From: Gammaproteobacteria bacterium
GTDB taxonomy: Bacteria > Pseudomonadota > Gammaproteobacteria > SZUA-152
NCBI GenBank assembly: GCA_032250735.1
Contig: JAVVEP010000009.1
Location: forward strand, 32,334-96,333
Length of the DNA stretch: 64,000 bases
Direction: 5' to 3'
A model generated the notes under the pieces. That model was not told the origin of the DNA. It did no database searches and saw nothing but the letters and a program-made list of their open reading frames with translations. The stretch's first letter is position 1. Each line of letters opens with the position of its first letter. This document shows positions 11,254-63,356 of this stretch, piece after piece. The translations under genes and the position numbers were made by a program.

Positions 11254-11946
11254 ATGCATAACACAAACGAGAGTATAGACTTTTCGACAGTGCTGGCCGG
11301 CTCCGTGCATGACATGAAAAATTCCCTGGCCATGTTGCTTGGTTCCATTTCAGAGATCACAAACCACTGCAATCCTCAATCATGTCCGATGTATGACACA
11401 TTCAATCGAATGCAGCATGAGGCCCAACGCGTAAATCGCGATCTGATTCTATTACTAACACTCTACAAGATGGACAAGGGGCAGTATTTTTTCAATATTG
11501 ACGAAGTCAATATGAATGAATTTCTTGAAGAGGTTATTATTGACTATAAAGACCTGTTACAGAATTACAATATAAAGATATCGCTTGAATGCGACCCTGA
11601 TTTGGTTGGATATCTTGACCGCAACCTTGTCTCCAGCATTATAAAAACCATTATTAGCAATGCCTATCAATACACAACAGACAGTATCGTAATCAATGTC
11701 ACCAGCGACGACGGCTATACGAAAATTTCGGTGATCGATAACGGATGCGGCTACCCGGAGCAAATGCTGATCGATGGAACGCCAGATTCAAATACGGTCA
11801 ATTTTGAAACCGGCAGCACAGGACTGGGGCTGTATTTCTCCTCACGCGTTGCAAATCTGCACAAAAGCAAGACGAGAAAAGGTTATATCCGAATCAGCAA
11901 TAAAACCAATCCACAGGGCGGCTGTTTTAGCATTTATCTCCCGTAA
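11254..11946 (+). CDS. Soluble histidine kinase (HisKA plus HATPase_c, no sensor or TM)
   Basis: H-box SVHDMKNSLAML, N-box ISNAYQYT, G1 DNGCGYP, G2 GSTGLGLYF. 6-nt spacing from the REC-TPR gene. Confidence 0.75.
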   Translation: MHNTNESIDFSTVLAGSVHDMKNSLAMLLGSISEITNHCNPQSCPMYDTFNRMQHEAQRVNRDLILLLTLYKMDKGQYFFNIDEVNMNEFLEEVIIDYKDLLQNYNIKISLECDPDLVGYLDRNLVSSIIKTIISNAYQYTTDSIVINVTSDDGYTKISVIDNGCGYPEQMLIDGTPDSNTVNFETGSTGLGLYFSSRVANLHKSKTRKGYIRISNKTNPQGGCFSIYLP

Positions 11947-12008
11947 TCGTTACACAAGCACATACAACACATGTTTTATCACCTTAATTAGAAGTAATCA
12001 TAAACACT

Positions 12009-32476: not shown

Positions 32477-32524
32477 ACACGGACGGCATCGACAGACCCC
32501 GATCAACACACCAGTACAGTACAA

Positions 32525-32687
32525 GGGCGCAATAAACGAAGGGCATTGCGCCCTGTAGGAGCCCAGCCCTCTCGGCGATTCCCTTCCAACAATCGCACCC
32601 TCTCAACCCATCGGCCAGGGGGGCTGCCCTCCTACACAGTGCCGTAGTGCCGTAGGGCGCAATAACCGAAGGGCATTGCGCCGTATG
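32525..32687. repeat. Pair of REP-like hairpin elements (GGGCGCAATAAmCGAAGGGCATTGCGCC) between convergent genes
   Basis: Two ~28-bp near-identical copies at 32525-32559 and 32655-32687, each with a GCGCAAT/ATTGCGC stem. Likely terminator or REP structures. Confidence 0.6.
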
Positions 32688-33392: not shown

Positions 33393-34883
33393 TCACGCAT
33401 CCACCAAAAGATCGTTCGTAATCGACTCTGCGTAATGCAGCAATGCGTCCAGTATGTGCTGTTGCTTTTGATCCAGATCCGAGGTCTGTTTTAGCAGCGC
33501 AATGCGTTCACGCAATTCAGACAGGCTAAGGCCTGCGCCATGACTATTCATCGTCAGGCGTTGCAGCCTGAATTCATCCCAGCGCCTGTTTTCGTCTTCA
33601 CTGAGAAACTCCGGATAATTGCGCGCCCGATACCGAAACAGCATTTCCGACAGGCGCTGATCCTGAAAGGGCAGATCCAGGCTCGCCAGTTGTTGCGGAA
33701 CGGTCTGACGAACGATCTCCATTCGGTCTCGATCATCATTGGAAAAGAATCCACCGCTGTAAAGCATGAAGTCCGGGTCATCCACGGCCTCGAAACTTCG
33801 GCTCTCCTTATAGACGGCCTGCAGATTTCTGGAAAAATCCGCATGTGCCAACAGCACTGCCAGGTTTTGCTGTGCGCGCGTCACATTGAGTTGCCATTTC
33901 TCGGCCGCCGCAGCGGTTAGGGTAGTGACCGGAACCAGGACCGGACTCTTGTTGATATGCACCGTCTTGACCGGCAGCCTGGCGCAGCCCTCGGGCAATG
34001 CATCCTGTCGGGTAAACAGGCGCTCCGCCATTTCATCCGGACGCAGTGCCAAAAAGGGCTGCGGCGAAACGCTCAGGTCATAGACAATGAGTTCATTTTT
34101 ATTGACAGGGTGTGCCGCCAGCGGGGCGACCAGTGCGATACAGCCGCGCTCCGCAGGATACATGGAGGAAACATGCAGCACCGGCGCCGGCCTGGCGATA
34201 TTGAGCAGTTGGGCGACGCTCTGTTTGGAGCGATGGCGGTAGACATAATCATATAATCTGGGTTGTTTTTCTTTTATCAGCCGCGCCATGGCAATCGTCG
34301 CCTGCACGTCCGACAAGGCATCATGCGCCGCCTCGTGGCTGATGCCATTGATCGCCGTCAGCTGTTCCAGTCGAAAGCTGGTTTTTCCGTCCGCATGGGT
34401 TGGCCACCGTATGCCTTCGGGACGCAGCGCATGGGTCAGTCGCAGCATATCGATAATGTCCCAGCGCGAATTGCCGTTTTGCCATTCACGGGCGTAGGGG
34501 TCGTAAAAATTACGGTACAGGGTGGTGCGGGTCACCTCGTCGTCAAACCGGATATTGTTATAACCCACCACGCAGGTGTTGGGCTGCGAAAACTCGGCAT
34601 GGATCTGACGGATGAACTCGGCCTCGGGAACTCCCTCGGCCAGGGCCTTTTGCGGCGTAATCCCGGTAACCAGGCACGCCTCTGGCGCCGGTAAAAAATC
34701 ATTGGCCGGGCGACAATACAGGCTTAGCGGTTCGCCAATGATATTGAAATCGAGATCGGTACGAATGCCCGCAAACTGTGCCGGCCGATCGCGACGGGGG
34801 TCGACACCAAATGTTTCATAGTCGTGCCAATACAGTGTGGGTCCGGAATATCCGGACTGGCCCTGCCGCTTATGTGTGGCCAC
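33393..34883 (-). CDS. sbcB: Exodeoxyribonuclease I
   Basis: YWHDYETFGVDP DEDDh exonuclease motif I. Typical length for ExoI. Confidence 0.9.
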   Translation of the reverse strand: MATHKRQGQSGYSGPTLYWHDYETFGVDPRRDRPAQFAGIRTDLDFNIIGEPLSLYCRPANDFLPAPEACLVTGITPQKALAEGVPEAEFIRQIHAEFSQPNTCVVGYNNIRFDDEVTRTTLYRNFYDPYAREWQNGNSRWDIIDMLRLTHALRPEGIRWPTHADGKTSFRLEQLTAINGISHEAAHDALSDVQATIAMARLIKEKQPRLYDYVYRHRSKQSVAQLLNIARPAPVLHVSSMYPAERGCIALVAPLAAHPVNKNELIVYDLSVSPQPFLALRPDEMAERLFTRQDALPEGCARLPVKTVHINKSPVLVPVTTLTAAAAEKWQLNVTRAQQNLAVLLAHADFSRNLQAVYKESRSFEAVDDPDFMLYSGGFFSNDDRDRMEIVRQTVPQQLASLDLPFQDQRLSEMLFRYRARNYPEFLSEDENRRWDEFRLQRLTMNSHGAGLSLSELRERIALLKQTSDLDQKQQHILDALLHYAESITNDLLVDA

Positions 34884-34933
34884 AGTCTCTCCCCAGATGC
34901 CTGTCAGGCGCCTAATAGTCTCTTACTAAGAAA

Positions 34934-35047
34934 GCGCATGGAAAGGATACCCTTCAATCAAGACACGCTGAGAATACATCCGTGTACGCTCGACAGCAGC
35001 ATCCTTGCTGCTGACGGTCTTGATTGAAGGGTATCCTTTCCATGTGA
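34934..35047. mobile_element. MITE-like element, copy 1 (~108 bp core with 27-bp perfect terminal inverted repeats CATGGAAAGGATACCCTTCAATCAAGA)
   Basis: Intergenic between sbcB and the PP2C gene. Near-identical copy at 50708-50815 with the internal segment inverted. Confidence 0.7.
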
Positions 35048-35092
35048 CTCAATAAAATAATAAGCCGGTTTTATGAATCCATGCCGCAGAGC

Positions 35093-35827
35093 TTAATCCG
35101 CGGTTGAAACGGTGTCCTCTGCGGGGCCTGCCACCAGCAACACCGTGATGTTATCCGCACCACCATTATCCAGTGACTTCTGAATCAGCAGGTCAGTTTT
35201 CTGCTTTTCATTGAGTTCCAGACCCAGAATTTCGGCAATCTCCGCATCGGAAACCTCACCCGTCAGGCCATCACTGCATAACAGCAACTGTTGTCCCTGA
35301 CACAGCCTTCCCTGCACGCGGCCGACCTGCATGGTCTGCAAATCCGACATGCCGATGGCCTGGGTGATGTAATTGCGCTGCGGATGCACCCGCGCCTCGG
35401 CCAGTGTGATGCTGCCATCATCCACCAGCGCCTGCACCAGGGAATGATCCTTGGTGATCTGGGTCAATGCGGTGCCGTCCCAGAGATAGGCGCGGCTGTC
35501 GCCCACCCAGACGATTTCAAAGTTTTCCTGATCCATTTTCAGGGCGAGTGCGGTAGAGCCCATGCCCGGCTTTCCTTCACCCCGATCCGCCGCCTTGCGT
35601 ACGGCATGGTGCGCCTGTACCAGGGCATCCGCCATCGGCCGCCCCGCACGAATTTCGGCGCACACGCACTCCACCACGATGCGGCTGGCGATCTCCCCGC
35701 CCTCATGGCCACCCATACCATCGGCCAGCACACCAAAGTTATACTCAGTATCGATGCAATAGGCATCTTCATTGTGCTGCCTCACATTACCGACGTGAGT
35801 CAGATGACCGCAATTCCTGAATGCCAT
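35093..35827 (-). CDS. PP2C-family Ser/Thr protein phosphatase
   Basis: HVGNVRQHNEDA, LADGMGGHEGGEIAS metal-binding motifs, DNITVLLV C-terminal motif. Confidence 0.88.
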   Translation of the reverse strand: MAFRNCGHLTHVGNVRQHNEDAYCIDTEYNFGVLADGMGGHEGGEIASRIVVECVCAEIRAGRPMADALVQAHHAVRKAADRGEGKPGMGSTALALKMDQENFEIVWVGDSRAYLWDGTALTQITKDHSLVQALVDDGSITLAEARVHPQRNYITQAIGMSDLQTMQVGRVQGRLCQGQQLLLCSDGLTGEVSDAEIAEILGLELNEKQKTDLLIQKSLDNGGADNITVLLVAGPAEDTVSTAD

Positions 35828-35875
35828 AAATCAATTCATCTCCACCAAAGCTATCGCAAAACGCATCGTAAAAGG

Positions 35876-37966
35876 TCAGGGCCGATCGAACAACCGATAG
35901 GCCTGACTGTCAATAAACACCTCCACTAACAGTGGATCAATCTTGCCGTGCGCGGCCTCATGCTTGAGGAGATCCAGCGCCTTGTCGACACTGAGGCTCC
36001 GTTTGTAGGGCCGATCCCCCGCCGTTAAGGCATCAAAAATATCGGCCACAGTCATCACCCTCGCCGGGATCGGAATCTCGTCCCCCTTCAGGCCCTGCGG
36101 ATAACCGCTGCCATCCAGCTTTTCGTGATGGGCGTGGGCAATATCCGCCACCGCGGCCAGCGATCCCGTCCAGGGAATATGGCTCAGGAAGGAAAAGGTA
36201 TGACTGACGTGTGACTGAATATCCAGCCGCTCATCGGGTGTCAGACTGCCGCGGGCCAGGGTCAACGCCTCAAACTCCGCCGTATTGAGCAAAGCCACAG
36301 CCTCGCCCTGTTCACCGGGAAATACGAAATCGGCGACCGCCTGTAGTTCGCCGTTGACCTGATCATCAATCACCGACGGTTCATTGGCGTGTCTGATGAT
36401 CGCCATGAAACGTTGCAGGCGTCCCGCCTCCAGTTTCAATCGCGCCTCCACCGCGCCCCGGTGCCGCCTGAACTCGGCCGGCGACAGCTCACTGTGCTGA
36501 TAAACCAGTTCGCGATAGGCCTGCCGCTCCAGACTCGCCCGCGCATAACGGAATCTTTCCTGCAAAACGTCCAGCTGCGAATGATACAGCTTTCGGGCCT
36601 TGATCAGCACATGTTCCCGCACCCCCACCTTGCCAAAGTCATGCAGCAGGGCCGCGTAGCGCAGTTCCCGGATTTGCTCCAGGCTAAAGCGGATATCACG
36701 CAGCGCCTGATGCTGGCTACCATCCACCGCCTGCGCCAGGCGCTGGGAATATTCCGCCACCCGAAACGAATGCCCCGCCGTGGCGGGATCGCGTTCCTCA
36801 ATGGCGTGTACCGAGGCCGTTACAAAACCCTCGAACAGCTGTTCAATATCTTCGTAGAGGCCAAAATTCTTGAGCGCGACCGCGACTTGCGCGCCGATGC
36901 CGGTCAGGATCTGCAGGTCTTCCTGGTCAAATGAATGCGTCTGGCGATGGGTGTCGATCTGGATCAAACCGATGACCTCGGCCTCCACCAGCAAGGGCAC
37001 GCACATCACGCTACGCAGCCCCAGCTGCGAGATAGACTCTTGCCCCTTAAAGCGCTGATCATCCATCACATCGGTGGAAAGAATACTGCGCCGCTGTCCG
37101 ACCACCTCGTCAACGATGACCTCGGACAGCACCAGCACCGTGTTCTCCGCGCCGGGCGTGCGGGTCGAGGCGGCCGCCGGATGAAACCCGGCCACCCCCT
37201 CGCCACGCCTGTCGCGCAGCACCACAAAGGCCCGTTCTGCGGTGGGGAAGATGTCAAAAATCACCGCCATGATCCTGGCAAACAGGGCCTCCCGGCTGCT
37301 CTCCGTACCCAGCCCAATACTGACCTGCACCATGGCGCGCAGGCGTCGCAGCAGCTGGCTGTTGCTCTCGGTGGTATCGGTCTGCGCGATATGCAGCTGT
37401 TCCATCACCTCGGAGACATCCAGCACGGCGCTGATCTCCGGTGAGGTCATTTCGGGGGCGCGAAACAGCATCGAGACATCTGCCGCCCTCTCACCGTCTG
37501 CATTGGCGGGAGTGAGGGAGAAATCAAAAAACTCCTCATTGCGCCCGATCTCGGAGGGATAGTCGGAGGAATAACCTGAGGAACGCTCCGAGGAACCCGG
37601 CGCCTGCGCCACGGCAGCGGGACGAAAACGTAGATAGACCCCGCCGACCTGAATATTGCTGCCATCACGCAACACATAGGGGGTACCGGGGGTCAGCCGA
37701 AAGGCATTCAGAAACGTGCCATTGGTCGAGTGCGTATCTTCCAGATAAAACCGACCATTGCTCTGAAATATCCGCGCGTGGTACCGGCTGACCCGGCTAT
37801 CCGACAGGCCGATGCTGTCTTCGGGCAGACTGAAATCCTCGTCATTGCGACCGATGAGGGTTTCCGCCGCCAGCGTGAAATACCGCTGTGCCGGGGCGCC
37901 ACCGCGCACCTCCAGGTAGGCCGATGCCGGTCGTCGGGGTACCGCGTCGGTCATGTGTGTCATCAT
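35876..37966 (-). CDS. FHA-GAF-HD-GYP multidomain protein (putative phosphothreonine-regulated c-di-GMP phosphodiesterase)
   Basis: N-terminal FHA (RVSRYHARI...DTHSTNGTFLN), central GAF, C-terminal HD-GYP (ALLHDFGKV, HHEKLDGSGYPQG). Confidence 0.8.
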   Translation of the reverse strand: MMTHMTDAVPRRPASAYLEVRGGAPAQRYFTLAAETLIGRNDEDFSLPEDSIGLSDSRVSRYHARIFQSNGRFYLEDTHSTNGTFLNAFRLTPGTPYVLRDGSNIQVGGVYLRFRPAAVAQAPGSSERSSGYSSDYPSEIGRNEEFFDFSLTPANADGERAADVSMLFRAPEMTSPEISAVLDVSEVMEQLHIAQTDTTESNSQLLRRLRAMVQVSIGLGTESSREALFARIMAVIFDIFPTAERAFVVLRDRRGEGVAGFHPAAASTRTPGAENTVLVLSEVIVDEVVGQRRSILSTDVMDDQRFKGQESISQLGLRSVMCVPLLVEAEVIGLIQIDTHRQTHSFDQEDLQILTGIGAQVAVALKNFGLYEDIEQLFEGFVTASVHAIEERDPATAGHSFRVAEYSQRLAQAVDGSQHQALRDIRFSLEQIRELRYAALLHDFGKVGVREHVLIKARKLYHSQLDVLQERFRYARASLERQAYRELVYQHSELSPAEFRRHRGAVEARLKLEAGRLQRFMAIIRHANEPSVIDDQVNGELQAVADFVFPGEQGEAVALLNTAEFEALTLARGSLTPDERLDIQSHVSHTFSFLSHIPWTGSLAAVADIAHAHHEKLDGSGYPQGLKGDEIPIPARVMTVADIFDALTAGDRPYKRSLSVDKALDLLKHEAAHGKIDPLLVEVFIDSQAYRLFDRP

Positions 37967-38197
37967 CTGTTGTCACCCTGTTGTCCTGTGGCCAGGCGCG
38001 AGGTCAGTTGACCTTGCGCGGCGTTACTTGTGCGGCGTTCATTGTCGAAGAATAATCGACCCACCGTCGAACGCGTAGCGACGGCCCGATCATCCACCTA
38101 CGGCAACCCTGTAAACTGATGTTTTTCATAATATTAAATCGTTATACTCAATCCGGCCTGCCCGATACAGCCCGCGCCGTTGAATTCAGTGATTTTA

Positions 38198-38382
38198 CTC
38201 AGAGCCTGTGAAAGAACCGTTGGCCGTAGCGAGGGCGTCGATTTTCGAGCGAAACAAGGCGCGCACCATGAAAACAAGGGAGTTTGGTGGACCAAATGAC
38301 CGCCGTTTTCATGGTGCGCAACGCCGTTGCAGCCGAAAAGCGACGTCCGCAGTAGGTCGACGATTTTTTCACAGGCTCTCAG
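38198..38382. repeat. 185-bp nested imperfect inverted repeat in a 537-bp divergent intergenic region
   Basis: Outer 16-bp inverted repeat (CTCAGAGCCTGTGAAA / TTTCACAGGCTCTCAG). Inner perfect 15-bp inverted repeat (GCGCACCATGAAAAC / GTTTTCATGGTGCGC). Central TTTGGTGGACCAAA palindrome. The arms are about 70-75% complementary. Confidence 0.65.
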
Positions 38383-38503
38383 GCATATCAGCCCGATTCG
38401 CGTATACTAAAAACCCTCTCCTGGAGATGGATATTGGCACACTGACTACGTTTATTGTCGCGTCACACACAATTCGATAACACATCGCACAAAAGGCCAT
38501 GCC

Positions 38504-38998
38504 GTGGATAACAACACTTTAAAGGTTCCGAAAAAACTCCGCCCGGTCACCCTCTGGGTTCATCCGGAGGGTCGCGTGATTGGCGCGATCTATCTGCGCA
38601 CGCAAAGCCCGCACCATGCCGGCAGCGAACAGCCACTGGAGGCACTGAATCTGTGTCAGAGTTTTCTGGTCTTTAATCGTGACGAGGCACCCGAGTTGCG
38701 ATTTTATAACATCAAATCGGTGACCCGCGTTGAATATGAGGCCACCGAGGAGGACCAGCAGGCTACCAAAACCAATCCCATGCGTTGCCACTTGCAGTTA
38801 ATGGATGGCGCCTATATCGCCGGCACGATACGCGAATCACTGCCACCGAATCATGCCCGCCTGCTGGACTACCTGAATCGTGCGGATGAAACCTTCATCA
38901 AGATTCATATAGATGACGGACTGATCTACCTCGTCAATAAATCCTACATCAACCATGTCCAGGTCGATCAGCTCGGTGATGACGAGGGAGAGGGCTAG
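38504..38998 (+). CDS. Hypothetical 164-aa protein, first gene of the kinase / PilT-like operon arm
   Basis: Clean ORF 57 nt upstream of the kinase gene. No confident motif. A PilZ-like region (DGAYIAG) is speculative. Confidence 0.45.
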   Translation: MDNNTLKVPKKLRPVTLWVHPEGRVIGAIYLRTQSPHHAGSEQPLEALNLCQSFLVFNRDEAPELRFYNIKSVTRVEYEATEEDQQATKTNPMRCHLQLMDGAYIAGTIRESLPPNHARLLDYLNRADETFIKIHIDDGLIYLVNKSYINHVQVDQLGDDEGEG

Positions 38999-39055
38999 CT
39001 TGCGCCACGCCGTCTTCCCATCGCGCGTGAGCCAGACAGCGCAGACGCTTGCCGG

Positions 39056-41575
39056 GTGTCGGTCCGGCCACGGTTGCCGCGCATGAGCCTGTTATCGGGA
39101 TTTCAGGCCGGTCGGGCAATCAACACCCTGCTCGCCGACGATGCCGGCGCCAGCGCGGAAGGCAAGCGCGCCCTGTACCGGCTCAAGCAGATCGGCGAGC
39201 CGGCCATTCCCCGGCTGATTGAGGCCCTCGGCAGTCCACAAAACACCGCCACCCTGGAGCAGTTGCTGATCGGCTTTGTGCGCAACAGCACCCTGCACGC
39301 CTTTGTCGTCGGCCTGAGCGCGGGCGACCAACGCATCGTGGATGGGGTAACCCGTATCCTCAAGCGCTCGAAGGAGTTCAACCCCAACGACCTACTCCCC
39401 TATTTCAGTCAGCCCATTGGCGAGGCCGAGGTCTCCAAGACGGCCCTGGGCGAGATACTCACCAGCCACGCCGAGCGCATCAACCCCACGACCCTGCTGG
39501 GCCTGCTGGATCACGTCGACAGCAAGGTGCGCCCCATGCTGTATCGATTGCTGGACACCATCGCCACCGAGGCCCTGGTGCCGGACCTCATCCAGCGCCT
39601 CGACAGCCCGCAGACCCTGGTGCGCACCCACCTGCTCAATCTGCTGGCCCGTTTCGATACCGCGGCCAGTCGCGAGGGACTGGTAAAGGGGCTCGGCGAT
39701 AGCAATAAGTCCGTGCGTCAGGCGGCCCTCAATGGGCTGGCCACGCTGCAGGCGACGGAACATGTGGCGGACATCTGCCAGCTATTGAGCGACCCCGACC
39801 TCACGGTGCAGTCGGCCGCCATCGAGACCCTGGCCAAGATTCAGTCGCCGGACACGGTCAAACACCTGATCACGGTGCTGCAGGATGAATCGGAATACGT
39901 GCGCCGCGCCGCGGTGGAGGTACTCAACGAGGTCGGTGACCAGAATGCGGTGAAAGACCTGCTCAACGCGCTGCGTGACGTGGACTGGTGGGTGAAGGTG
40001 CGGGCCGCCGATGCCCTGGGGGCAATCGGCGGACCCAAGGTTTTCGATGCGGTGCTGGCCCTGATCAAGGACAAGGACGAATTTCTGCGCCGCACCGCGG
40101 TGGAGATTCTGAACACCGGCAAAGACCCGCGCGCCCTGGACCGCCTCATCGAGGCCCTGCGCGACGAAGACTGGTGGGTGCGAGAGCGGGCGGTGGACGC
40201 CCTCGCCGCCATTGGTGACGCCCGCGCCGTGCCGCACCTGATCACCATGCTGGAGGAAAATCCCGAGGCCGGCCAGGTGGTAATCCGCGCCCTCGCCACG
40301 CTGGGCGATCGGCAGGCGATCAATCCCCTGCTCCGCCAGCTCGACAAGGCCGACAACACGCTGCGCAAAGAGGCGCTGAAGGCGCTGGAGAGTCTCACCG
40401 ATGACACCTCCGCACAGGCGGTGCAGGAGGCCGTGACCCAGCTCATCCATACCCGGGGCGACGAGGTCGGCAGCGCCGCCGACGAGACGGTGCGCAGTCT
40501 GATTCAGCGTTTTGGCGACCGCGCCAGCCCTGCCTCCCGTGGCGCGTCCGCCGTCGCGCCACCGGTCGCCCGCCCGTCGACGGAGGTGATGGATCTGCCC
40601 ACCCAGGCCTTCGACAGCCGCGCGCCCCAGCCGGACAGCTCGGGGCAAACCCAGTCCATGCCGCTCGATGCCACCAGGGCGACCGACAGTGAAACCACGC
40701 CACTCACCCACTATCTTGACCCCTCGCGACTGGTGCCCAATACGATCCTGGCGGAACGCTATCACGTGATCCGCAAGATTGGCGAGGGCGCCTTTGGCGT
40801 CGTGTGGCTGGTGGAAGACGTGATGGTGGGTGATGAATTCATCCTCAAGTTCCTCAATCCCCAGTTTGCCGCCGACCAGAACATGATCGAGCGTTTCATG
40901 CACGAGCTGCGCTACGCCCGCAAGATCACCCACGAAAACATCATCCGCATCTACGACCTGGTCACCGTGGGCGATTCCTACGCGATTTCCATGGAATACT
41001 TTCCCAGCCACTCGCTGGCGGACGAGCTGCGGGAGCACAAAACACGGCACACCACCTTTGATCTGCCGCGCGGCATCCACGTGATTTCCTGCATCTGCCG
41101 CGGTATGGCCCAGGCCCAGGCCCAGGCGGTGGTGCACCGTGACCTGAAACCCGCCAACATCCTCATCGACGAGAACGACGAGCTGAAGATCGTGGATTTC
41201 GGTCTGGCCGCCGCCGCCCGCAAGGCGGATTCCCGGCTCACCAAGAGCGGCATACTGGTGGGCACCCCGACCTACATGGCGCCCGAACAGGTGCGGGGAC
41301 GCACCATCGATTCGCGTACCGATATCTACACCCTGGGGATCATCATGTATGAAATGTTCGCCGGCCAGGCGCCGTACACCGGCGACGAGTCCATGGCGAT
41401 CCTGTTTCAGCACGTGGAAGGCAAGGCCATCCCGCCCCGTGAGATCAATGCCGACATTCCGCCCGCGCTGGAACAGGTGATCATCAAGGCCATGGCCGTC
41501 GACCCCGAACAGCGTTTTCAAACCTTCGACGCGCTGCGCCTGCAACTGGAAACCATCTGCAAGGATGCATGCTAA
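39056..41575 (+). CDS. Hanks-type Ser/Thr protein kinase with an N-terminal HEAT / PBS-lyase repeat array
   Basis: About 450 aa of HEAT-like repeats (DWWVKVRAADALGAIG, DWWVRERAVDALAAIG). C-terminal kinase: GEGAFGVVW, ILK (VAIK-type), HRDLKPANIL, DFGLAA, GTPTYMAPE. Confidence 0.88.
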   Translation: MSVRPRLPRMSLLSGFQAGRAINTLLADDAGASAEGKRALYRLKQIGEPAIPRLIEALGSPQNTATLEQLLIGFVRNSTLHAFVVGLSAGDQRIVDGVTRILKRSKEFNPNDLLPYFSQPIGEAEVSKTALGEILTSHAERINPTTLLGLLDHVDSKVRPMLYRLLDTIATEALVPDLIQRLDSPQTLVRTHLLNLLARFDTAASREGLVKGLGDSNKSVRQAALNGLATLQATEHVADICQLLSDPDLTVQSAAIETLAKIQSPDTVKHLITVLQDESEYVRRAAVEVLNEVGDQNAVKDLLNALRDVDWWVKVRAADALGAIGGPKVFDAVLALIKDKDEFLRRTAVEILNTGKDPRALDRLIEALRDEDWWVRERAVDALAAIGDARAVPHLITMLEENPEAGQVVIRALATLGDRQAINPLLRQLDKADNTLRKEALKALESLTDDTSAQAVQEAVTQLIHTRGDEVGSAADETVRSLIQRFGDRASPASRGASAVAPPVARPSTEVMDLPTQAFDSRAPQPDSSGQTQSMPLDATRATDSETTPLTHYLDPSRLVPNTILAERYHVIRKIGEGAFGVVWLVEDVMVGDEFILKFLNPQFAADQNMIERFMHELRYARKITHENIIRIYDLVTVGDSYAISMEYFPSHSLADELREHKTRHTTFDLPRGIHVISCICRGMAQAQAQAVVHRDLKPANILIDENDELKIVDFGLAAAARKADSRLTKSGILVGTPTYMAPEQVRGRTIDSRTDIYTLGIIMYEMFAGQAPYTGDESMAILFQHVEGKAIPPREINADIPPALEQVIIKAMAVDPEQRFQTFDALRLQLETICKDAC

Positions 41576-42669
41576 TGGCCAGAATTGACGCCTTTTTGAA
41601 GCTCGGCCGTGAACAGGGTTGCACCGATATCCACTTCGCAGTGGGCATGCCGCCGCTGCTGCGCAGCATGGGCGAGCTGCTGCCCATCAAGTATCGCGAA
41701 CTCTCCGAACAGGAGCTGGCGAGTCTGATCGATGACATCATCGACCCGCAACAGAGGGCGCAGTTCGAGAACGGCAAGGACATCGATTTTGCCTACCAGA
41801 GCCATGAGGTCGGGCGCTTTCGGGTCAGCCTGTTTCGTAAAACCAGCGGCATCGGTGCGGCCTTTCGACTGGTCAACACCGACATCCCCAGTCTGGACGA
41901 TCTGGGCATGCCGCCGGCGGTGGCCAAATTTATTGACACCCATCAGGGCCTGGTGCTGGTCACCGGCGCCACCGGCACCGGCAAGTCCACCACCCTCGCC
42001 TCGATGCTGGACCTGCTAAACCGCACCCGGCGCCTGAACATCATTACCCTGGAAGACCCCATCGAGCACATCCACCACAGCCAGAAATCGCTGGTGGTGC
42101 AACGGGAGATCGGCACCCATGTGAACAGCTTTGCCAACGGTCTGAGAGCGGCGCTGCGCGAGGACCCCGACGTGATCCTGGTCGGCGAGCTACGCGACCC
42201 CGAGACCATCCTGATGGCGATGACCGCCGCCGAGACCGGCCACCTGGTACTGGGGACCCTGCACACCACCTCCGCCACCAAAACCATTGACCGGATTATC
42301 GATGCCACACCGACCGCGCAAAAGGCCCAGGCGAGTAACTTTCTCGCCCAGCACCTGCGCGGCGTGATCAGCCAGAAACTGGTCAAGAGCCCCGACGGGC
42401 GCAGCCGCAAGGCCATCGTCGAGGTGTTTATCAATACCCCCGCGATCGCCAATCTCATCAATACCGGCAAGATCTTCCAGATCCCCTCGATCCTGCAGAC
42501 CGGGCGCGACAAGGGCATGCAGACCATGGATCAGGCCCTGCTGGAGGCGGTGCAGAACAAGACCATCGATCCCGATGAGGCCTATCTGCACGCCACCGAC
42601 AAACAGCAATTCCAGCGCTTCGTGACCAACCCCGAGCTGCTGCCCCAGGTCAACCTGGCGATCAGCTGA
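41569..42669 (+). CDS. PilT/PilU-family type IV pilus retraction ATPase, paralog 1
   Basis: Walker A GATGTGKSTT, Asp box, TIEDPIE, Walker B DVILVGELRD, His box, AIANLI motif. The start overlaps the kinase stop by 7 nt. Confidence 0.85.
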   Translation: MLMARIDAFLKLGREQGCTDIHFAVGMPPLLRSMGELLPIKYRELSEQELASLIDDIIDPQQRAQFENGKDIDFAYQSHEVGRFRVSLFRKTSGIGAAFRLVNTDIPSLDDLGMPPAVAKFIDTHQGLVLVTGATGTGKSTTLASMLDLLNRTRRLNIITLEDPIEHIHHSQKSLVVQREIGTHVNSFANGLRAALREDPDVILVGELRDPETILMAMTAAETGHLVLGTLHTTSATKTIDRIIDATPTAQKAQASNFLAQHLRGVISQKLVKSPDGRSRKAIVEVFINTPAIANLINTGKIFQIPSILQTGRDKGMQTMDQALLEAVQNKTIDPDEAYLHATDKQQFQRFVTNPELLPQVNLAIS

Positions 42670-42671
42670 GC

Positions 42672-43760
42672 ATGAGCCGCGTCGACGCCTTTCTGGAGCT
42701 GCTGGTCAAACAGTCCGGCTCCGACCTGCACCTGGTTTCAGGCAATCCCCCGCGGATACGCCTGTACGGCGAGATCCACCCCATCAAATACCGCGAACTG
42801 ACCGAGAGCGAAACCGAAGACCTGCTGTTCGAGATCATGCCGCAACGGGTCAAAACGGTGTTGGCCGAAAAGGGCGGGGCCGATTTTTCCTACCAGCTGC
42901 CCGATGTGGCCCGTTTTCGCGTCAATGTGTTTCGCCACCTCGGCGGCATTGGCGCGGTGTTCCGGGCCATCCCCAACCAGATCACGCCCCTGGAGGAGCT
43001 GCGCATGCCGGCGGTGCTGAAGACCCTGGCCCGCCAGCGCAAGGGGCTGATTCTGGTGGCCGGCCCCACCGGCTCGGGCAAATCCACCACCCTCGCGGCG
43101 ATCATCGACTTCATCAATCGGGAGCGCAAAGGCCACATCATCACCATCGAAGACCCGGTGGAACACCTGCACAGCAACAAGACCTGCCTGATGAGCCAGC
43201 GGGAGCTGGGCGATCACACCGAGGGCTTCGCCCAGGCGCTGCGTTCCGCCCTGCGCGAGGACCCCGACGTGATCCTGGTGGGAGAAATGCGCGACCTGGA
43301 GACCATCAGCCTGGCCGTGACCGCCGCCGAGATGGGTATCCTGATCCTCGCGACCCTGCACACCAATGGCGCCGCCGCCGCCATCGACCGGATCATCAAC
43401 GTCTTCCCGCCGGGCGAAGAACCCTATATCCGCACCATGCTGTCCACCTCGCTGTGCGGGGTGATCTCCCAGCAACTGGTAAAAACGGCCGATAATCGTG
43501 GCAGACTTGCAGCGGTAGAGACTCTGATTAATAATTCCGCTGCGTCGAACATGATCCGCGAGGGGAAAACCGAGCAGCTGGAGAACGTGATTCAGGCCGG
43601 GGCGCTACAGGGGATGCAGACGATCGACACCGCGCTACGCCGCCTGCTCGATGAAAAATTGATTACCGGCGAAGAGGCCTACCGAAAGGCCCGCCAGAAA
43701 TCAAACTTTGAACAATATAGGGAACACGATGAATCACTCAAGCCGATCACCCGCCAATGA
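42672..43760 (+). CDS. PilT/PilU-family type IV pilus retraction ATPase, paralog 2
   Basis: GPTGSGKSTT, TIEDPVE, DVILVGEMRDLETI, ASNMIREGK. 2 nt after the previous stop. Confidence 0.85.
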   Translation: MSRVDAFLELLVKQSGSDLHLVSGNPPRIRLYGEIHPIKYRELTESETEDLLFEIMPQRVKTVLAEKGGADFSYQLPDVARFRVNVFRHLGGIGAVFRAIPNQITPLEELRMPAVLKTLARQRKGLILVAGPTGSGKSTTLAAIIDFINRERKGHIITIEDPVEHLHSNKTCLMSQRELGDHTEGFAQALRSALREDPDVILVGEMRDLETISLAVTAAEMGILILATLHTNGAAAAIDRIINVFPPGEEPYIRTMLSTSLCGVISQQLVKTADNRGRLAAVETLINNSAASNMIREGKTEQLENVIQAGALQGMQTIDTALRRLLDEKLITGEEAYRKARQKSNFEQYREHDESLKPITRQ

Positions 43761-44541
43761 CAGACGGACCCATGCACCGGTCTCCCTCCACAGCGGGCGG
43801 GATGCGGCCTCTCCCGGCGTGTCGCCGGAAGCGGGACAGGTCGGTGACGTCGCCGCCCGCGCCCCTGAGGCGCGGCGTCGACTGATCCTCACCCTGGAAG
43901 GCAAGATCATCCGCGAAATTCCCGTTACCGGCCGTCCCATCAGCATCGGGCGCAAACATGACAACGACATTCAGCTGAATGACCTGACCCTGAGCGGACG
44001 GCATGCGCAGATCTCCAGCGTGCCCGATTATGTCTTTATCGAAGACCTGGGCAGCACCAACGGCACCCTGGTCAACGGCAATCACGTGAAGAAGGTGGCG
44101 CTGGAACACGGCGACATTGTCCAGATCGGCCACCACCAGTTGACCTATATGCAGGAGTCGGAGAACAGCTACGAACCCACCATGTTCATCAAGGCCGAAT
44201 TCGACGAGACGCAGTTCATCTATGCCGACGACATCGCCACCCACGTGGTCAAGGGACTGCCACTGGGCGGATTCCGGACCGTGGGTGGCCCCGGCACAAA
44301 GTGTGTGATGGAGCTGCGTAAAACCTACAACACGATCGGCTTTCAGGGTAAGCGCGTGGCACTGATCACCCGTGGCACCGGCGGCTATTACATCACCTCC
44401 GTTGCCGGCACCCGCAGTCGTAGAACCTCCGACATACCCCTGCTGAACAATGCCGTTATCAACACCGAACTGACGCTGCTAAAGGAAAACGACATTATCA
44501 ACATCGCCGGCTTTGAGGTGCAGTTTTATTTTTTAAACTAG
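43708..44541 (+). CDS. FHA-domain protein (N-terminal FHA, uncharacterised C-terminal domain), paralog A
   Basis: FHA: ISIGRKHDNDIQLNDLTLSGRHAQI...EDLGSTNGTLVNG. The C-terminal domain is shared with the next ORF. The start is ambiguous (43708 or 43729) and overlaps the ATPase end. Confidence 0.75.
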   Translation: MNNIGNTMNHSSRSPANDRRTHAPVSLHSGRDAASPGVSPEAGQVGDVAARAPEARRRLILTLEGKIIREIPVTGRPISIGRKHDNDIQLNDLTLSGRHAQISSVPDYVFIEDLGSTNGTLVNGNHVKKVALEHGDIVQIGHHQLTYMQESENSYEPTMFIKAEFDETQFIYADDIATHVVKGLPLGGFRTVGGPGTKCVMELRKTYNTIGFQGKRVALITRGTGGYYITSVAGTRSRRTSDIPLLNNAVINTELTLLKENDIINIAGFEVQFYFLN

Positions 44542-44677
44542 CTGCCCGAGTTAAACGCCGAGTCCAGTCTGTGAGCCCAGAGTTGCAACCAGAACCAGCC
44601 TCAAACCCGACTCACCGAAATTCAACCATGCCACATAAGAAAGTGTGGCGAGCTGAACCTCGCAAGGATTTGCACGC

Positions 44678-45355
44678 ATGAACAGTAAACTCATCCTGAC
44701 CCTGGATGGCGAAATCATCAATGAATATGCGCTCGATCGCGCACATCTCAGCATTGGCCGGAAACACGGTAATGACATCCAGCTCAATGACCTGACCGTC
44801 AGTGGCCGTCATGCCATGATCAGTTCATCACTGCCGGAGCAGGTGTTTGCCGAAGACCTGGGCAGCACCAACGGCACCCTGGTCAATGGCAATCACATCA
44901 AAAAGACCTCGCTGCAACACGGCGACATCATTCAGGTGGGACACCACCAGTTCACGTTTCTGAATGAGGGCGAGGCCCGCTATGAGCCCACCATGTTTAT
45001 CAAGGCCGAGTTGGATGATACGCAGATGGTATTGCCCGACTGGGAGTCCCGCGCCGAGACCATCAAGGGTCAGCCGCTGGCGGGTCTACGAACCTTGAAC
45101 GGTCCCCTTGCCCGTACCGTGATGGAACTGCGTAAACCGTTCAGTACCCTCGGCTTCCAGGGCCACAAACTGGCGCTGATCAGCCGGGGCTTAAACAGCT
45201 ATTCCATCAGCCCGGTGCATGCCTCCAAGCATCGCCGCGGCACAGACACCCCCTTACTCAACGGCGAACCTCTTGGTGCATTGCCCGTCGAGCTCAAGCC
45301 CGACGACACCATCAGCATCGCCGGCTTTGAAGTGGCGTTTTATTACATCCATTAG
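44678..45355 (+). CDS. FHA-domain protein, paralog B (same architecture as 43708-44541)
   Basis: FHA: LSIGRKHGNDIQLNDLTVSGRHAMI...EDLGSTNGTLVNG. Conserved C-terminus TMFIKAE.D.TQ...MELRK...GFQG...ISIAGFEV.FY. Confidence 0.78.
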   Translation: MNSKLILTLDGEIINEYALDRAHLSIGRKHGNDIQLNDLTVSGRHAMISSSLPEQVFAEDLGSTNGTLVNGNHIKKTSLQHGDIIQVGHHQFTFLNEGEARYEPTMFIKAELDDTQMVLPDWESRAETIKGQPLAGLRTLNGPLARTVMELRKPFSTLGFQGHKLALISRGLNSYSISPVHASKHRRGTDTPLLNGEPLGALPVELKPDDTISIAGFEVAFYYIH

Positions 45356-50649: not shown

Positions 50650-50707
50650 CGTTGTTCTCCTACTTCAATATACAGGAAGCTGATTACCGCTTTTTACTAA
50701 CAAGGCG

Positions 50708-50815
50708 CATGGAAAGGATACCCTTCAATCAAGACCGTCAGCAGCAGGGATGCTGCTGTCGAGCGTACACGGATGTATTCTCAGCGCGTCTTGATTGAAG
50801 GGTATCCTTTTCATG
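50708..50815. mobile_element. MITE-like element, copy 2 (same 27-bp terminal inverted repeats as copy 1, 1 mismatch in one repeat; internal region in opposite orientation)
   Basis: Intergenic between fleR and fliE. The flanks also resemble those of copy 1 for about 15 bp. Confidence 0.7.
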
Positions 50816-50850
50816 TGATGCAATAATAATTCATTACAAAAAAGCAAAAT

Positions 50851-59831: not shown

Positions 59832-62345
59832 TTGACCGAAATCGATAAAACTCAGCAAATGGATTCTGGCAATACTGTCTGCAATGCATTCGGCGAGTGC
59901 TACCTGTTCGCTATCAACCGCAATCTCTTCGAGAACACCTGTGCTAACACCGTGTTCCAGACCCAATACGGTGAGTCACTTTTCCAGAAAGATACCTTTT
60001 ATGTGATTCCAGGGACCGACAGTGGTCTTCTCTTCCAGTATGTGAAAAAGCATGGCATTCCGGCCGGCAGCCGTTATCTCTTTGTGGAATTGCCTCACGT
60101 ACTGGTCTTATTGGGCGATCTCGGTAGCCAAGAGCCGGAACTACAAATAACCAGCGATACACACTGGCTGGCGCAGGCCAAGGCAATGGGGGCAGAAAAC
60201 TACGCCTTGCTGGGCCAACTGACGCTGATGCGTTCACGCGGGGTACTGCATGGCCATTACCCCGATTACCCGCACTTCTGGAGTCGTCTCAAGGGAGAAT
60301 TCGATGCCTTCTCCTGGCAGTATGCCCTGGTCCAGAATGCCCACTATTTCACGATGCGCCAGATCGAGAACCTGACAGAGAATCAGGTGCCGGCACTCTG
60401 CCTGAAGGACAGCTTCCGCGGCAAAACCGCAGTCCTGCTGGCTGGCGGACCATCACTGGATGAACTGTTGCCCTGGGTGCGGCAACACCGCAAAAACCTG
60501 CTGGTAATCGCTGTGTCCCGTGTCAGCCGTGCACTGATTCAGGCCGGCATCCAGCCCGACATCAGCGTATCAATCGACCCCCAGCCCATCAACCTGGAAG
60601 TCAGCCGGGACATGCTCGAATTTCAGGACGGTACGTTACTGGTGAACAACACCCATTTGACCCCCTACCTGTTGTCGAGCTGGGGGGGTGAAAAAGTATT
60701 CATCGGACAACGCTACCCATGGAGCACCCCGCAGGAACCGGAAAACCTGCCGCCCATTGAAGGCCCTACCGTCACCGAAAGTGCATTTTCATTTGTCGTT
60801 GAAACAGGTGTTACGCAAATTATTTTAGGTGGCGCTGACTTCTGCTTTAGTCAGAGTGGGTATACCCATGCTAGCGGTACTGCAGAGCACGCCTTAGGGC
60901 CCAGGCCCATGGCGGGGAACCTGCAAGTGACGACCAACAGCGGTGTATCGGCGAACACCTCGGCCACGCTTCTAAAGGCCGCCCAATATATCGATACCCA
61001 ATCTCAGAATGCGATGGCGCGTGGTTGTCGAACAGTGAACCCGGCAGCCGGAGCCATGCGTCTGCTCCATGTTGACTATGCAGCATTAAATACTATCCAG
61101 ATCACCCCGATGGAGATACCGGCACGTAAGATTATCGCTGACTGCGTACCCCCCTCCGATGCCAGAGTTAGAATTAGCTACTACAAAGAAATACTAAGTG
61201 AGGTAGATCATGTGCTCACCGAACTGAGTATCATTAAAGGGCTGGCGAACAAAGCATTAATATATAACCACAAATTAATCGCCAAGAAAGAAAAAGGGAG
61301 TGAGATTCATAATAAAGCAAAAATAAAGCATGTTGAGAAACAGCTCGACGGCAAATATATATCAACTTCAACATTCATCAAACATTTTGGCGTACGTCGA
61401 TTTCTCCTACTCCTCAGGCCAACTCACCGAAACACTCAGGATATCGAGTATAAAAAAAACCAGCACTATTTCCAGGCATTCATCGAAACCAGTGATGAAA
61501 TCCTGGATATGCTCCGTTTGACTAGAACCCGTATCTTAAGTCGTGTGGAGGAAGAGAGCCCCAAACCCGATGTGCGGCACCTCATTGAACAATGGCGGCG
61601 CGATCAACAGCCTGGACGCGCTATAAATTGGGCAAGATACCATGCAGCTTACGTAAGCCACCTACCAATTGCAGAGCAACAGTTATTGCATGATTACCAG
61701 GAGTCAATCGCGGACGTGGTGGCGGAGATTGCTCAAGATCACTCAGCCCTCATCGAACGGGGGGCCTCACTTGGTGGCGCACCAGATCGAGCATATGAGT
61801 ATTTTCAATGCCAGAATCAGCAAGGTTTACAACGTTTGCTGGCTGGCTTAGAGAAAAATCACAAGCCGGATCAGGCCGTTCTTTTGATACCATTAATACG
61901 CGGTTACATAGCCGAGCTCGAAGGTGACGACACATCTGCAATCACCGCGTATGAATCCATTGCAAGCGGCCCTGCATACCTAAATGCACTCAAGCGAAGA
62001 TTAATGCTGTATTCCAATGCAGGGAAGAATGACGCAGCTATCGACGCATTGAAGACAATGTCCGGCCTGAACTCCTCATTTACCCCACTGTACGCCGACA
62101 TGCTTCTATTAACGGGAAATATCGATGAGGCTATGAATGTTTACACCGATTATTTACTGGACCACCCTAATGACCTGGACACAGTATTAAAGGCAGGTAA
62201 ATTATTCTGGCAATGTGATATGCCCCAAGGGGCAGATTGGGCAGTGCGCTATATTCTCGAGAAAGACCCACACAATCAGAATGCACAACGATTCCTGATT
62301 AAAATAGAGAAAAACACGCCAGAAAGTTTCGCCGACAACGTATAA
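59832..62345 (+). CDS. maf: Motility accessory factor (Maf / DUF115, MptE-like) with a C-terminal TPR-like region; putative flagellin glycosyltransferase
   Basis: TAVLLAGGPSLDEL motif typical of DUF115/Maf proteins. 837 aa, low GC, adjacent to flagellin. TPR-like C-terminus. Confidence 0.7.
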   Translation: MTEIDKTQQMDSGNTVCNAFGECYLFAINRNLFENTCANTVFQTQYGESLFQKDTFYVIPGTDSGLLFQYVKKHGIPAGSRYLFVELPHVLVLLGDLGSQEPELQITSDTHWLAQAKAMGAENYALLGQLTLMRSRGVLHGHYPDYPHFWSRLKGEFDAFSWQYALVQNAHYFTMRQIENLTENQVPALCLKDSFRGKTAVLLAGGPSLDELLPWVRQHRKNLLVIAVSRVSRALIQAGIQPDISVSIDPQPINLEVSRDMLEFQDGTLLVNNTHLTPYLLSSWGGEKVFIGQRYPWSTPQEPENLPPIEGPTVTESAFSFVVETGVTQIILGGADFCFSQSGYTHASGTAEHALGPRPMAGNLQVTTNSGVSANTSATLLKAAQYIDTQSQNAMARGCRTVNPAAGAMRLLHVDYAALNTIQITPMEIPARKIIADCVPPSDARVRISYYKEILSEVDHVLTELSIIKGLANKALIYNHKLIAKKEKGSEIHNKAKIKHVEKQLDGKYISTSTFIKHFGVRRFLLLLRPTHRNTQDIEYKKNQHYFQAFIETSDEILDMLRLTRTRILSRVEEESPKPDVRHLIEQWRRDQQPGRAINWARYHAAYVSHLPIAEQQLLHDYQESIADVVAEIAQDHSALIERGASLGGAPDRAYEYFQCQNQQGLQRLLAGLEKNHKPDQAVLLIPLIRGYIAELEGDDTSAITAYESIASGPAYLNALKRRLMLYSNAGKNDAAIDALKTMSGLNSSFTPLYADMLLLTGNIDEAMNVYTDYLLDHPNDLDTVLKAGKLFWQCDMPQGADWAVRYILEKDPHNQNAQRFLIKIEKNTPESFADNV

Positions 62346-62366: not shown

Positions 62367-63356
62367 CTATTGCTTTTCTTTGCGCAGCATGTGTTGGTCA
62401 AACAGGCTGTTTTTCTTCATGCAAGGCGCACCATCACGCATCAAATCCTTACGCATAGAATTATTGAAACGCTCAGTCGTTATGCCACGGTTGACAGAGT
62501 CAAGGAACGTTGCACTACTGTCAGGGTCTTTGGCAATAAGATATCGCAATGATACTCGTTCGTTGGATCCAATATTTGGCTCAGTTCCATGAATGGTACA
62601 CGCATGCCATAGCGCAACATTCCCAGCACTACCAGTAATGACCTGTTGTATGGCTTCAACGCTCTGCCCCGACTTGCCGTGCACATAACGCCAACGATTA
62701 CTTGTTTCGTCAGCCAGGTCTATATCATGCGGAAACCCATCAACGCCTAGCCGGAATGAACCCGGAAGTAAATTTAGAGGCGCGGCATTTTCAGACACAT
62801 CATGTAGATACACATAGAGCGTGATAAAGTCGATATCCCGGTCTGCAAAATCAATGACGTCCTGATGAAAATCAATACCGTAGAAATAGGTTACATCCCG
62901 ATATTCAGGGCGAACGTAAGGCCCAAGATTATTAACCGGATTTTCACGAATTCGATCGAGTATCCAACGAGGTATCCACTCCTCTGGGACGCCACATATT
63001 ATTTTTTTTCTGATGATGCTATAGCCATTCCCAAGCAAGTTTCTTAACAATGAAGTAATCTCATCAGTATTTTCTATTGCTTGAGCAAAATCATCGTAGT
63101 TATCCAGAAGATTGAATCCCGGCTTAGGATTTACTCCGTTAAATACCGGGCTGCGAAGAAACGATTCTTCGTCCATAAACATCGCTGGTGAAAATTGCTT
63201 CTCAGATCTTATTTTTGCAAGCAGATCGGCGCATGTATTTACATCGACAACACTTCCTAGATCGACATAACCCTGCTTGCCAAACTGTTCCAGATTTTTC
63301 TCGATTTTGGTCATGACACTTTTCTCTCTGCTTACCGTATCCGTCACGCGGGCCAT
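62367..63356 (-). CDS. PhyH-like Fe(II)/2-oxoglutarate-dependent dioxygenase family protein
   Basis: HQD facial-triad motif (FHQDVIDF) and distal His (WHACTIHG). Low-GC island beside maf. Confidence 0.55.
   Translation of the reverse strand: MARVTDTVSREKSVMTKIEKNLEQFGKQGYVDLGSVVDVNTCADLLAKIRSEKQFSPAMFMDEESFLRSPVFNGVNPKPGFNLLDNYDDFAQAIENTDEITSLLRNLLGNGYSIIRKKIICGVPEEWIPRWILDRIRENPVNNLGPYVRPEYRDVTYFYGIDFHQDVIDFADRDIDFITLYVYLHDVSENAAPLNLLPGSFRLGVDGFPHDIDLADETSNRWRYVHGKSGQSVEAIQQVITGSAGNVALWHACTIHGTEPNIGSNERVSLRYLIAKDPDSSATFLDSVNRGITTERFNNSMRKDLMRDGAPCMKKNSLFDQHMLRKEKQ

Follow-up and report, generated by a model that had tools for sequence, protein, structure and literature searches.

A gammaproteobacterial cassette joining a Hanks-type kinase to tandem PilT/PilU-family ATPases: a candidate for phosphothreonine control of retraction motors

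Which cellular machine is served by a locus that places a Ser/Thr kinase, a PP2C phosphatase and FHA proteins beside two ATPases of the pilus-retraction family and an enzyme of cyclic di-GMP (c-di-GMP) turnover? The question is raised by a cassette of eight genes at positions 35093 to 45355 of a 64,000-nucleotide stretch of DNA from a Gammaproteobacteria bacterium of the SZUA-152 lineage (GenBank assembly GCA_032250735.1, contig JAVVEP010000009.1, positions 32,334 to 96,333). This whole stretch is referred to here as the window. An earlier sequence-only reading had singled out the arrangement as one not known to be a described system, and in the literature searched we likewise found no paper that describes it. 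As far as we can tell, the cassette is real, widespread in sediment Gammaproteobacteria and undescribed, and it most likely represents phosphothreonine control applied to PilT-type motors.

The timing of type IV pilus retraction is only partly understood, its known inputs being c-di-GMP effectors, Chp-type chemosensory systems and small GTPases. To our knowledge, and in the literature searched, direct control of a PilT-type motor by a Ser/Thr kinase has not been described in bacteria. The cassette is a compact candidate for such control, with a kinase, an eraser, readers, two motors and a second-messenger enzyme at one locus. Its carriers are abundant marine-sediment and sulfur-cycling Gammaproteobacteria, including the named species Kaarinaea lacus.

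Layout, conservation and inheritance of the cassette

Open reading frame (ORF) listing, combined with Pfam and NCBIfam profile searches of the window proteins, places two genes on a minus-strand arm and six on a plus-strand arm. The gene inventory, coordinates and domains proposed by the sequence-only reading were confirmed for all eight genes:

35093 to 35827, minus strand: PP2C-type Ser/Thr phosphatase, 244 amino acids (Pfam PP2C_2, E 7e-13)
35876 to 37966, minus strand: FHA-GAF-HD-GYP protein, 696 amino acids (FHA, E 3.5e-18; GAF, E 2.9e-15; HD_5, E 1.2e-35)
37967 to 38503, no strand: divergent intergenic (promoter) region separating the two arms, with a palindrome inside at 38190-38390
38504 to 38998, plus strand: small protein, 164 amino acids, first gene of the plus arm (predicted tandem small beta-barrels; weakly DUF6812-like; no Pfam family)
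39083 to 41575, plus strand: HEAT-repeat Hanks kinase, 830 amino acids from its likely start (HEAT_2, E 4.6e-54; Pkinase, E 5.5e-52)
41575 to 42669 (alternative start 41569), plus strand: PilT-family ATPase 1 (T1), PilU-like in appearance (TIGR01420, 421.8 bits)
42672 to 43760, plus strand: PilT-family ATPase 2 (T2), PilT-like in appearance (TIGR01420, 446.6 bits)
43729 to 44541, plus strand: FHA protein A (FHA, E 1e-20), with a Ser/Thr/Pro-rich N-terminal extension, an FHA domain and a C-terminal FHA-like domain
44678 to 45355, plus strand: FHA protein B, 225 amino acids, with an FHA domain, an invariant linker motif and a degenerate FHA-like domain

The kinase ORF opens at 39056, and alignment with homologues identifies the ATG at 39083 as its likely start. 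Its stop codon (TAA, 41573-41575) does overlap the start of T1, as first read, either as TAATG or through an ATG at 41569. Only 2 nucleotides separate the T1 stop from the T2 start, and the ATG of FHA protein A (43729) overlaps the 3' end of T2. Extrapolated across related loci, the distance from kinase stop to T1 start is -10 to -3 nucleotides in most, and removing the two extra N-terminal residues of the window query gives a kinase/T1 overlap of about 1 nucleotide across most loci.

To find relatives, a kinase alignment was used to scan genomes, one for each species. The scan yielded at least 585 confirmed matches, of which the best 80 loci were examined, and presence counts take in only those loci whose contig continues past the site. 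All 80 belong to Gammaproteobacteria according to their record titles, with kinase identities ranging from 77% down to 42% and labels that include Ectothiorhodospiraceae, Chromatiales, Thioalkalispiraceae, Thiohalomonadales, Thiohalophilus, Granulosicoccaceae, Competibacteraceae and Woeseiaceae. A protein from a metagenome-assembled 'Gammaproteobacteria bacterium' matches the kinase at 100% identity, and kinase homologues of 53-95% identity all come from uncultured Gammaproteobacteria, plus K. lacus. Linkage of kinase and ATPases in relatives, a check proposed at the outset as one that could overturn the idea, held firmly: T1 comes after the kinase in 73 of 74 loci, the one exception being due to a kinase alignment that was split, and T2 follows T1 in all 69. 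An FHA gene lies downstream in 51 of 61 loci and the small gene upstream of the kinase in 62 of 76, with the misses of both mostly in Woeseiaceae. Duplication of the FHA gene is confined to the clade of the window (kinase identity of about 65% or more), protein B being the widespread form. The divergent arm is modular, carrying both genes, PP2C only, FHA-GAF-HD-GYP only or neither, and in two loci PP2C lies downstream on the same strand. The gene arrangement is not due to chance: its invariant core is the kinase with the two ATPases, and the PP2C phosphatase and HD-GYP enzyme are optional.

The genes on either side of the window cassette were also correctly named in the sequence-only reading, as profile matches confirm:

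33393 to 34883: sbcB (Exonuc_X-T_C, E 9e-99)
45473 onwards: flagellar genes fliI-fliH-fliG-fliF-fliE, with sigma-54 regulators and fliD (profile searches)

A second suggestion, that a miniature inverted-repeat transposable element (MITE)-like sequence abutting the locus on the sbcB side hints at accessory origin, was contradicted by the comparison. The order sbcB, cassette, fliI is kept in two relatives (L007 and L017, kinase identity 74-77%). Across the loci the flanks are housekeeping genes that depend on the clade, including PBP1B, an NlpC/P60 peptidase, a DinG-like helicase, TsaB, an RND efflux pump, MetG and others, names that reflect our reading of representative sequences. Identities of T1, T2, FHA, small, PP2C and HD-GYP proteins co-vary with that of the kinase (Spearman 0.61-0.91), and the ATPases are the most conserved members (median identity 69%, versus 49% for the kinase). 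No relative of the kinase occurs in the viral-contig collection, and none of 72,556 plasmids has a match covering at least 80% of it. Because of this stable synteny, the housekeeping flanks, the co-varying identities and the lack of viral or full-length plasmid matches, we consider the cassette an old, vertically inherited chromosomal unit and not a recent accessory insertion; synteny, flanks and missing matches together rule out a mobile or accessory island. The palindromic repeat beside sbcB is absent from all 83 related loci compared, and is therefore a later local insertion.

The motors, their predicted regulators and the small protein

Both ATPases exceed the 319.1-bit cut-off of TIGR01420, the model for PilT/PilU family type 4a pilus ATPases. 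The Walker A (GxTGxGKST), Asp box (T(L/I)EDP(I/V)E), Walker B (EDPDVILVGE(L/M)RD) and His box (TLHT) motifs are kept in 66 T1 and 57 T2 orthologues. T1 is 47% and T2 50% identical to Pseudomonas aeruginosa PilT, and they share 46% with each other. P. aeruginosa PilT is 52% identical to the Aquifex or Geobacter PilTs, and canonical proteobacterial PilTs are far closer to each other than 47-50%. By the curated model, then, the cassette falls within the PilT/PilU family, but judging by its sequences not as canonical PilT. Since T1 and T2 are only 47-50% identical to P. aeruginosa PilT, they are best classed as deep paralogues, distinct from the usual gammaproteobacterial PilT.

Modelling puts the PilT motif AIRNLIRE where the motor meets the platform protein PilC; PilU no longer has this motif and wraps around PilT with a C-terminal extension (bioRxiv 10.1101/2025.10.30.685630). 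In T2 the corresponding motif reads A-x-(S/A)-N-x-I-R-E-G-K, with the A, N and second R present in all 57 orthologues and the first R replaced in all 57. In T1 it is degraded to AI(A/S)NLI(L/M)x, with loss of RE. T1 also has a conserved C-terminal tail, FQRFVT(D/N)P(D/E)LLPQVNLAxS, which extends about 17 residues past the last aligned residue of P. aeruginosa PilT (345), giving it both of the PilU hallmarks, loss of AIRNLIRE and an extended C-terminus. Because these motif states match those described for the two proteins, T2 looks PilT-like and T1 PilU-like. Directly before its tail T1 has a conserved DK(K/Q), and in Vibrio cholerae PilU the conserved lysine K348 makes a salt bridge to D2/E53 of PilT. 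Where the cassette includes an FHA gene, the residue at +3 of the T1 tail threonine is as a rule acidic, and where it does not, an acidic residue there is rare; this pattern is confounded by phylogeny. The cassette thus resembles the PilT-PilU pair of type IVa pili in having two tandem PilT-family ATPases, one of which keeps most of an AIRNLIRE-type motif while the other lacks it and has a conserved C-terminal extension. It differs from that pair in its low identity to P. aeruginosa PilT, in the replaced motif arginine, in an order that puts the PilU-like gene first (the reverse of pilT-pilU), in the translational coupling of its first ATPase to a kinase, and in that linkage to pilus genes was not found.

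In the kinase, GxGxxG, the catalytic lysine, HRDLKPxN, DFG and TPxYMAPE are invariant across 12 homologues (54-100% identity). The HEAT core is strongly conserved, the Ser/Thr/Pro-rich linker is variable, and Pfam searches found no domain in this protein other than HEAT and Pkinase; it is predicted to be a cytoplasmic, HEAT-repeat kinase of the Hanks type. FHA proteins A and B are 57% identical. Their FHA domains keep the phosphothreonine-binding residues (GR...SxxH...NG) and have GarA as their closest fold, while the C-terminal half of the FHA protein aligns with the FHA profile in the same register (hhalign E 3.5e-4) and lacks those residues. Between the halves lies the motif YEPTMFIKAExDETQ, whose Thr105 and Thr115 are invariant in 35 sequences. 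EPTMF is present in 60 of the 71 FHA proteins of the loci, and most of the remaining eleven are unrelated FHA genes of the flanks. By analogy with GarA/OdhI of actinobacteria, the EPTMF threonine may be a phospho-acceptor, to be bound in cis or in trans by an FHA domain. Unlike in those proteins, the motif follows the FHA domain instead of preceding it and is itself followed by a second FHA-like domain; the OdhI model gives 53 bits against a cut-off of 200, and the metabolic targets are absent.

The phosphatase scores 49 bits with PP2C_2 (cut-off 24) and 217 bits with the NCBIfam Stp1/IreP model, slightly under its cut-off of 230. Nearly all of 24 orthologues keep the metal-binding motifs NED, DGMGG, SDGL and GGxDN, the exceptions being two over-long ORF calls in which NED does not fall within the first 60 residues and one protein with GAKDN. 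LLHDFGK and HHEKLDGSGYP mark the window HD-GYP protein, and LLHDFGK with HHE(K/R)xDGxGYP occurs in all 26 full-length orthologues; the FHA-GAF-HD-GYP protein is accordingly predicted to be a phosphothreonine-docked, ligand-sensing c-di-GMP phosphodiesterase. Bdellovibrio DgcB, an FHA-GGDEF protein, sets a precedent for coupling FHA domains to c-di-GMP. Unlike in DgcB, the output domain in the cassette is a degradative HD-GYP combined with a GAF sensor.

The small protein, simply 'hypothetical' in the sequence-only reading, is a recurrent genomic partner of PilT-family ATPases. It matches no Pfam family, and an AlphaFold2 model built from a 34-sequence alignment predicts tandem small beta-barrels (predicted local distance difference test score, pLDDT, 84; predicted template-modelling score, pTM, 0.80). 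A weak match to DUF6812 (PF20660), in the window protein 15.5 bits against a gathering threshold of 27.1, recurs in 33 of 34 homologues, and a distant homologue in locus L088 reaches 30.3 bits. A profile search of 1.84 billion representatives returned 622 relatives; the best 150 are nearly all stand-alone proteins of about 150-165 residues (the longest has 240), with no informative domain fusion among them. Around distant relatives, genes for PilT-family ATPases directly adjoin the small gene in seven of the nine cases whose contig extends far enough for a verdict, the reading frames often overlapping, in neighbourhoods that vary (glycosyltransferases, ComEC, STAS, a sigma-54 regulator). This provides a first genomic context for DUF6812-like proteins, a family of unknown function, as partners of PilT-like ATPases.

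One of these relatives, L087, has the order PAS-GGDEF-EAL, small protein, HEAT-kinase, T1 orthologue (61%) and T2 orthologue (55%), and so represents this same cassette, its c-di-GMP enzyme exchanged for another, one that, in a further difference from DgcB, has no FHA domain. Other relatives encode a single ATPase beside the small protein:

L088, 10450 to 11862: ATPase paired with the small protein
L090, 8219 to 9913: ATPase paired with the small protein
L092, 8475 to 10250: ATPase paired with the small protein
L093, 8494 to 9960: ATPase paired with the small protein

Translation or alignment reveals an extra N-terminal PilT-N-like domain in the ATPases of L088, L090 and L093, and the same domain was seen by eye in L092. 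The assignment is based on second blastp matches to T1/T2 residues 1-114 for L088 and L093 and on inspection by eye for L090 and L092. In the longer of these four proteins an Ala/Pro-rich linker follows the extra domain. The L088 and L090 ATPases carry the motif PAVSNLIREGKT(F/Y)QIPS, which joins features split in the cassette between T2 (SNxIREGK) and T1 (FQIPS). We infer that such PilT-like ATPases have the small protein as their dedicated partner, and that the gammaproteobacterial cassette probably arose from a small-protein/ATPase pair by duplication of the ATPase and insertion of the kinase.

Two further neighbourhoods of the small protein were noted. In L091 (5799-9870), a metagenome-assembled genome (MAG) of Deltaproteobacteria, two PilT-like genes are followed by the small protein and a sigma-54 response regulator, making up a kinase-free, two-ATPase version of the module. 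L085 (10001-10489) and L086 hold a distant small-protein homologue in a neighbourhood resembling a plasmid or an integrative and conjugative element (ICE), with a faint TraU, a ParM-like actin and a primase-like gene, and no PilT-like ATPase nearby.

Readings of the cassette

We give about an even chance to the proposal that the cassette is a reversible threonine-phosphorylation switch acting on an auxiliary pair of retraction motors, coupled to c-di-GMP, the client of which is most likely a type IVa pilus machine encoded elsewhere. The whole basis of the step to a pilus is family membership together with the PilC-interface motif retained in T2; the motors' target has to be inferred, as no pilus structural genes are linked. 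In the proposed mechanism, the HEAT solenoid would scaffold the kinase on the motors and the kinase would phosphorylate threonines, for which the candidates lie in the linker or the activation loop of the kinase itself, in the invariant EPT-MF motif of the FHA protein and in the T1 tail (VT-x-P-(D/E)). FHA domains would read these marks, causing the T1/T2 motor pair to be assembled or released and the HD-GYP enzyme to be docked, so that motor activity and local c-di-GMP would change together, and PP2C would reset the switch. The output would be regulated pilus retraction, in twitching, adhesion or DNA uptake, coordinated with c-di-GMP. The c-di-GMP link, already part of the sequence-only reading, is a reasonable one. 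It recurs in L087 with the PAS-GGDEF-EAL enzyme as a replacement. Metagenomics of Woeseiaceae reports twitching genes, including pilI and pilJ, in all of its MAGs, with PilT/PilU called in all of them by automated annotation (PMC12175321). These genes are compatible with a pilus client and are not independent evidence for one, since the PilT/PilU calls may be T1 and T2 themselves.

Several observations weigh against this proposal. No pilin, pilA, pilB, pilC or pilMNOPQ gene was found, either across the 64 kb of the window or in the 22-kb stretches taken from each of 80 relatives. The Woeseiaceae cassette consists of kinase, T1 and T2 only, between mrp and metG, so that neither the FHA nor the small gene is essential to the core, and PP2C and HD-GYP genes do not adjoin many of the cassettes. 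In a few cassettes that do carry an FHA gene, the T1 tail threonine is replaced by N, A or M; this rules it out as an obligatory FHA site and demotes it to a lead.

Another explanation is that T1 and T2 are the lineage's own divergent pilT and pilU, and the cassette an ordinary twitching operon with extra regulators instead of an auxiliary motor. Both proteins do pass the TIGR01420 family model, their genes are in tandem like pilT-pilU in many Gammaproteobacteria, one looks PilT-like and the other PilU-like, and the PilT/PilU listed for all Woeseiaceae MAGs could be these very genes (PMC12175321). Against it, identities of 47-50% to P. aeruginosa PilT do not rise above the 52% that this protein shares with Aquifex and Geobacter PilTs, the PilU-like gene comes first, no T2 orthologue keeps the first R of AIRNLIRE, and the PilT-like ATPases closest in motif belong to unrelated lineages, where they are paired with the small protein; we would be rather surprised if this explanation proved correct. 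An unlikely possibility, and one to be taken seriously, is a phospho-regulated hexameric motor without a pilus role, working with the small protein in another filament or secretion step or in nucleic-acid or protein remodelling. Pilus genes are linked in no locus, the small-protein/PilT-like pair turns up among glycosyltransferases, ComEC, STAS and a sigma-54 regulator, one small-protein homologue has a plasmid- or ICE-like context, and other PilT-like ATPases (DotB, TraJ and archaeal PINA) act outside pili. T1 and T2, however, score 422-447 bits with the PilT/PilU model, far above the 22-168 bits that they reach with the models for those three; T2 retains A-x-x-N-x-IRE in the place that modelling assigns to the PilC interface, and PilT genes are in general often unlinked from pilus structural genes.

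Very improbable, in our estimation, is an anti-phage or other conflict system on a mobile island that uses a Ser/Thr kinase and ATPases. The kinase domain matches the PADLOC models PD-T4-6 (260 bits) and mad6 (245 bits), and a repeated palindromic element abuts the locus. These matches cover only the generic kinase domain, though, and a defence system was rejected on that result; the ATPases reach 24-28 bits with mad8, the phosphatase has a weak match (PDC-M21C, 30.5 bits), and the FHA, small and HD-GYP proteins have no PADLOC match. Housekeeping flanks, synteny that is stable within clades and partners that co-diverge as if vertically inherited further oppose it, as do the lack of any viral-contig match or full-length plasmid match and the absence of the repeat element from all relatives.

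The phosphothreonine switch on retraction motors, our favoured reading, has a functional parallel in the type VI secretion system (T6SS), where control of ATPase recruitment by kinase, FHA protein and PP2C is known. As the sequence-only reading had pointed out, the PpkA/PppA/Fha1 pathway likewise encodes a Hanks kinase, a PP2C and an FHA adaptor with a machine driven by a hexameric ATPase, and there an FHA-read phosphothreonine gates use of the ATPase. The analogy is reasonable, but the cassette is not a member of that pathway. All three FHA proteins fail the TagH/Fha1 model TIGR03354 (31-43 bits against 120.25), and no T6SS genes lie nearby, the flanks being sbcB and flagellar genes in the window and housekeeping genes in relatives. 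The cassette kinase is soluble with an N-terminal HEAT solenoid, whereas PpkA spans the membrane and senses the periplasm, and the motors are of the PilT family instead of ClpV. The archaeal Arn system of the Sulfolobus archaellum (ArnA FHA, ArnB vWA, ArnC and ArnD kinases, PP2A) exerts phospho-control in a comparable manner. It differs in that its target is archaellum gene expression, an action on the motor ATPase not being known, and its components are not homologous to those of the cassette beyond the FHA and kinase folds, which places the cassette outside the Arn group.

A broader interpretation, to which we assign a fairly low probability, is that the small DUF6812-like protein and its PilT-like ATPase make up a motor module that spans phyla, has gone unrecognised and differs from canonical pilus retraction. 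In sediment Gammaproteobacteria this module would have been duplicated and brought under direct Hanks-kinase/FHA/PP2C control with a c-di-GMP output. If this were true, the cassette would contain the first bacterial PilT-type motor switched by threonine phosphorylation, possibly beyond type IV pili.

Repeat elements and other features of the window

The MITE-like element that the sequence-only reading placed beside sbcB is real, and it is palindromic and repeated. Perfect inverted repeats of 28 nucleotides lie at 34937-34964 and 35017-35044, and another copy spans 50708-50815, against 0 matches in shuffled sequence; the whole element of about 130 bp occupies 34924-35052 and 50695-50823. The arms and the bases just outside them have the same orientation in both copies, and the 52-nucleotide core is reverse-complemented between them (2 mismatches, by eye). 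It looks like an element with an invertible or recombined core rather than a simple MITE.

The divergent intergenic region contains an imperfect palindrome (I2, 38190-38390) of about 200 bp with 36-nucleotide arms that are 78% complementary, present in a single copy in the window. No sigma-70-like promoter was found in this region (37967-38503), and TTGC does not stand at sigma-54 spacing from the TGGCAC upstream of the small gene (by eye). RNA elements and riboswitches were rejected for the intergenic regions, in which no Rfam match was better than E 0.16, the 38190-38390 palindrome included.

Further from the cassette, two ORFs beside the flagellar cluster, at 59832-62345 (plus strand, 837 residues) and 62367-63356 (minus strand, 329 residues), have no NCBIfam match at E 1e-10. 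Upstream of the cassette, positions 4092-14360 hold a signalling cluster comprising a hybrid histidine kinase with an Hpt domain, a vWA protein, a response regulator fused to TPR repeats and a second hybrid histidine kinase. Finally, at 32524-32682, downstream of biotin-dependent carboxylase genes, there are two copies, 130 nucleotides apart, of a 29-nucleotide hairpin-forming repeat, AGGGCGCAATAA(A/C)CGAAGGGCATTGCGCC, which resembles repetitive extragenic palindromic (REP) elements.

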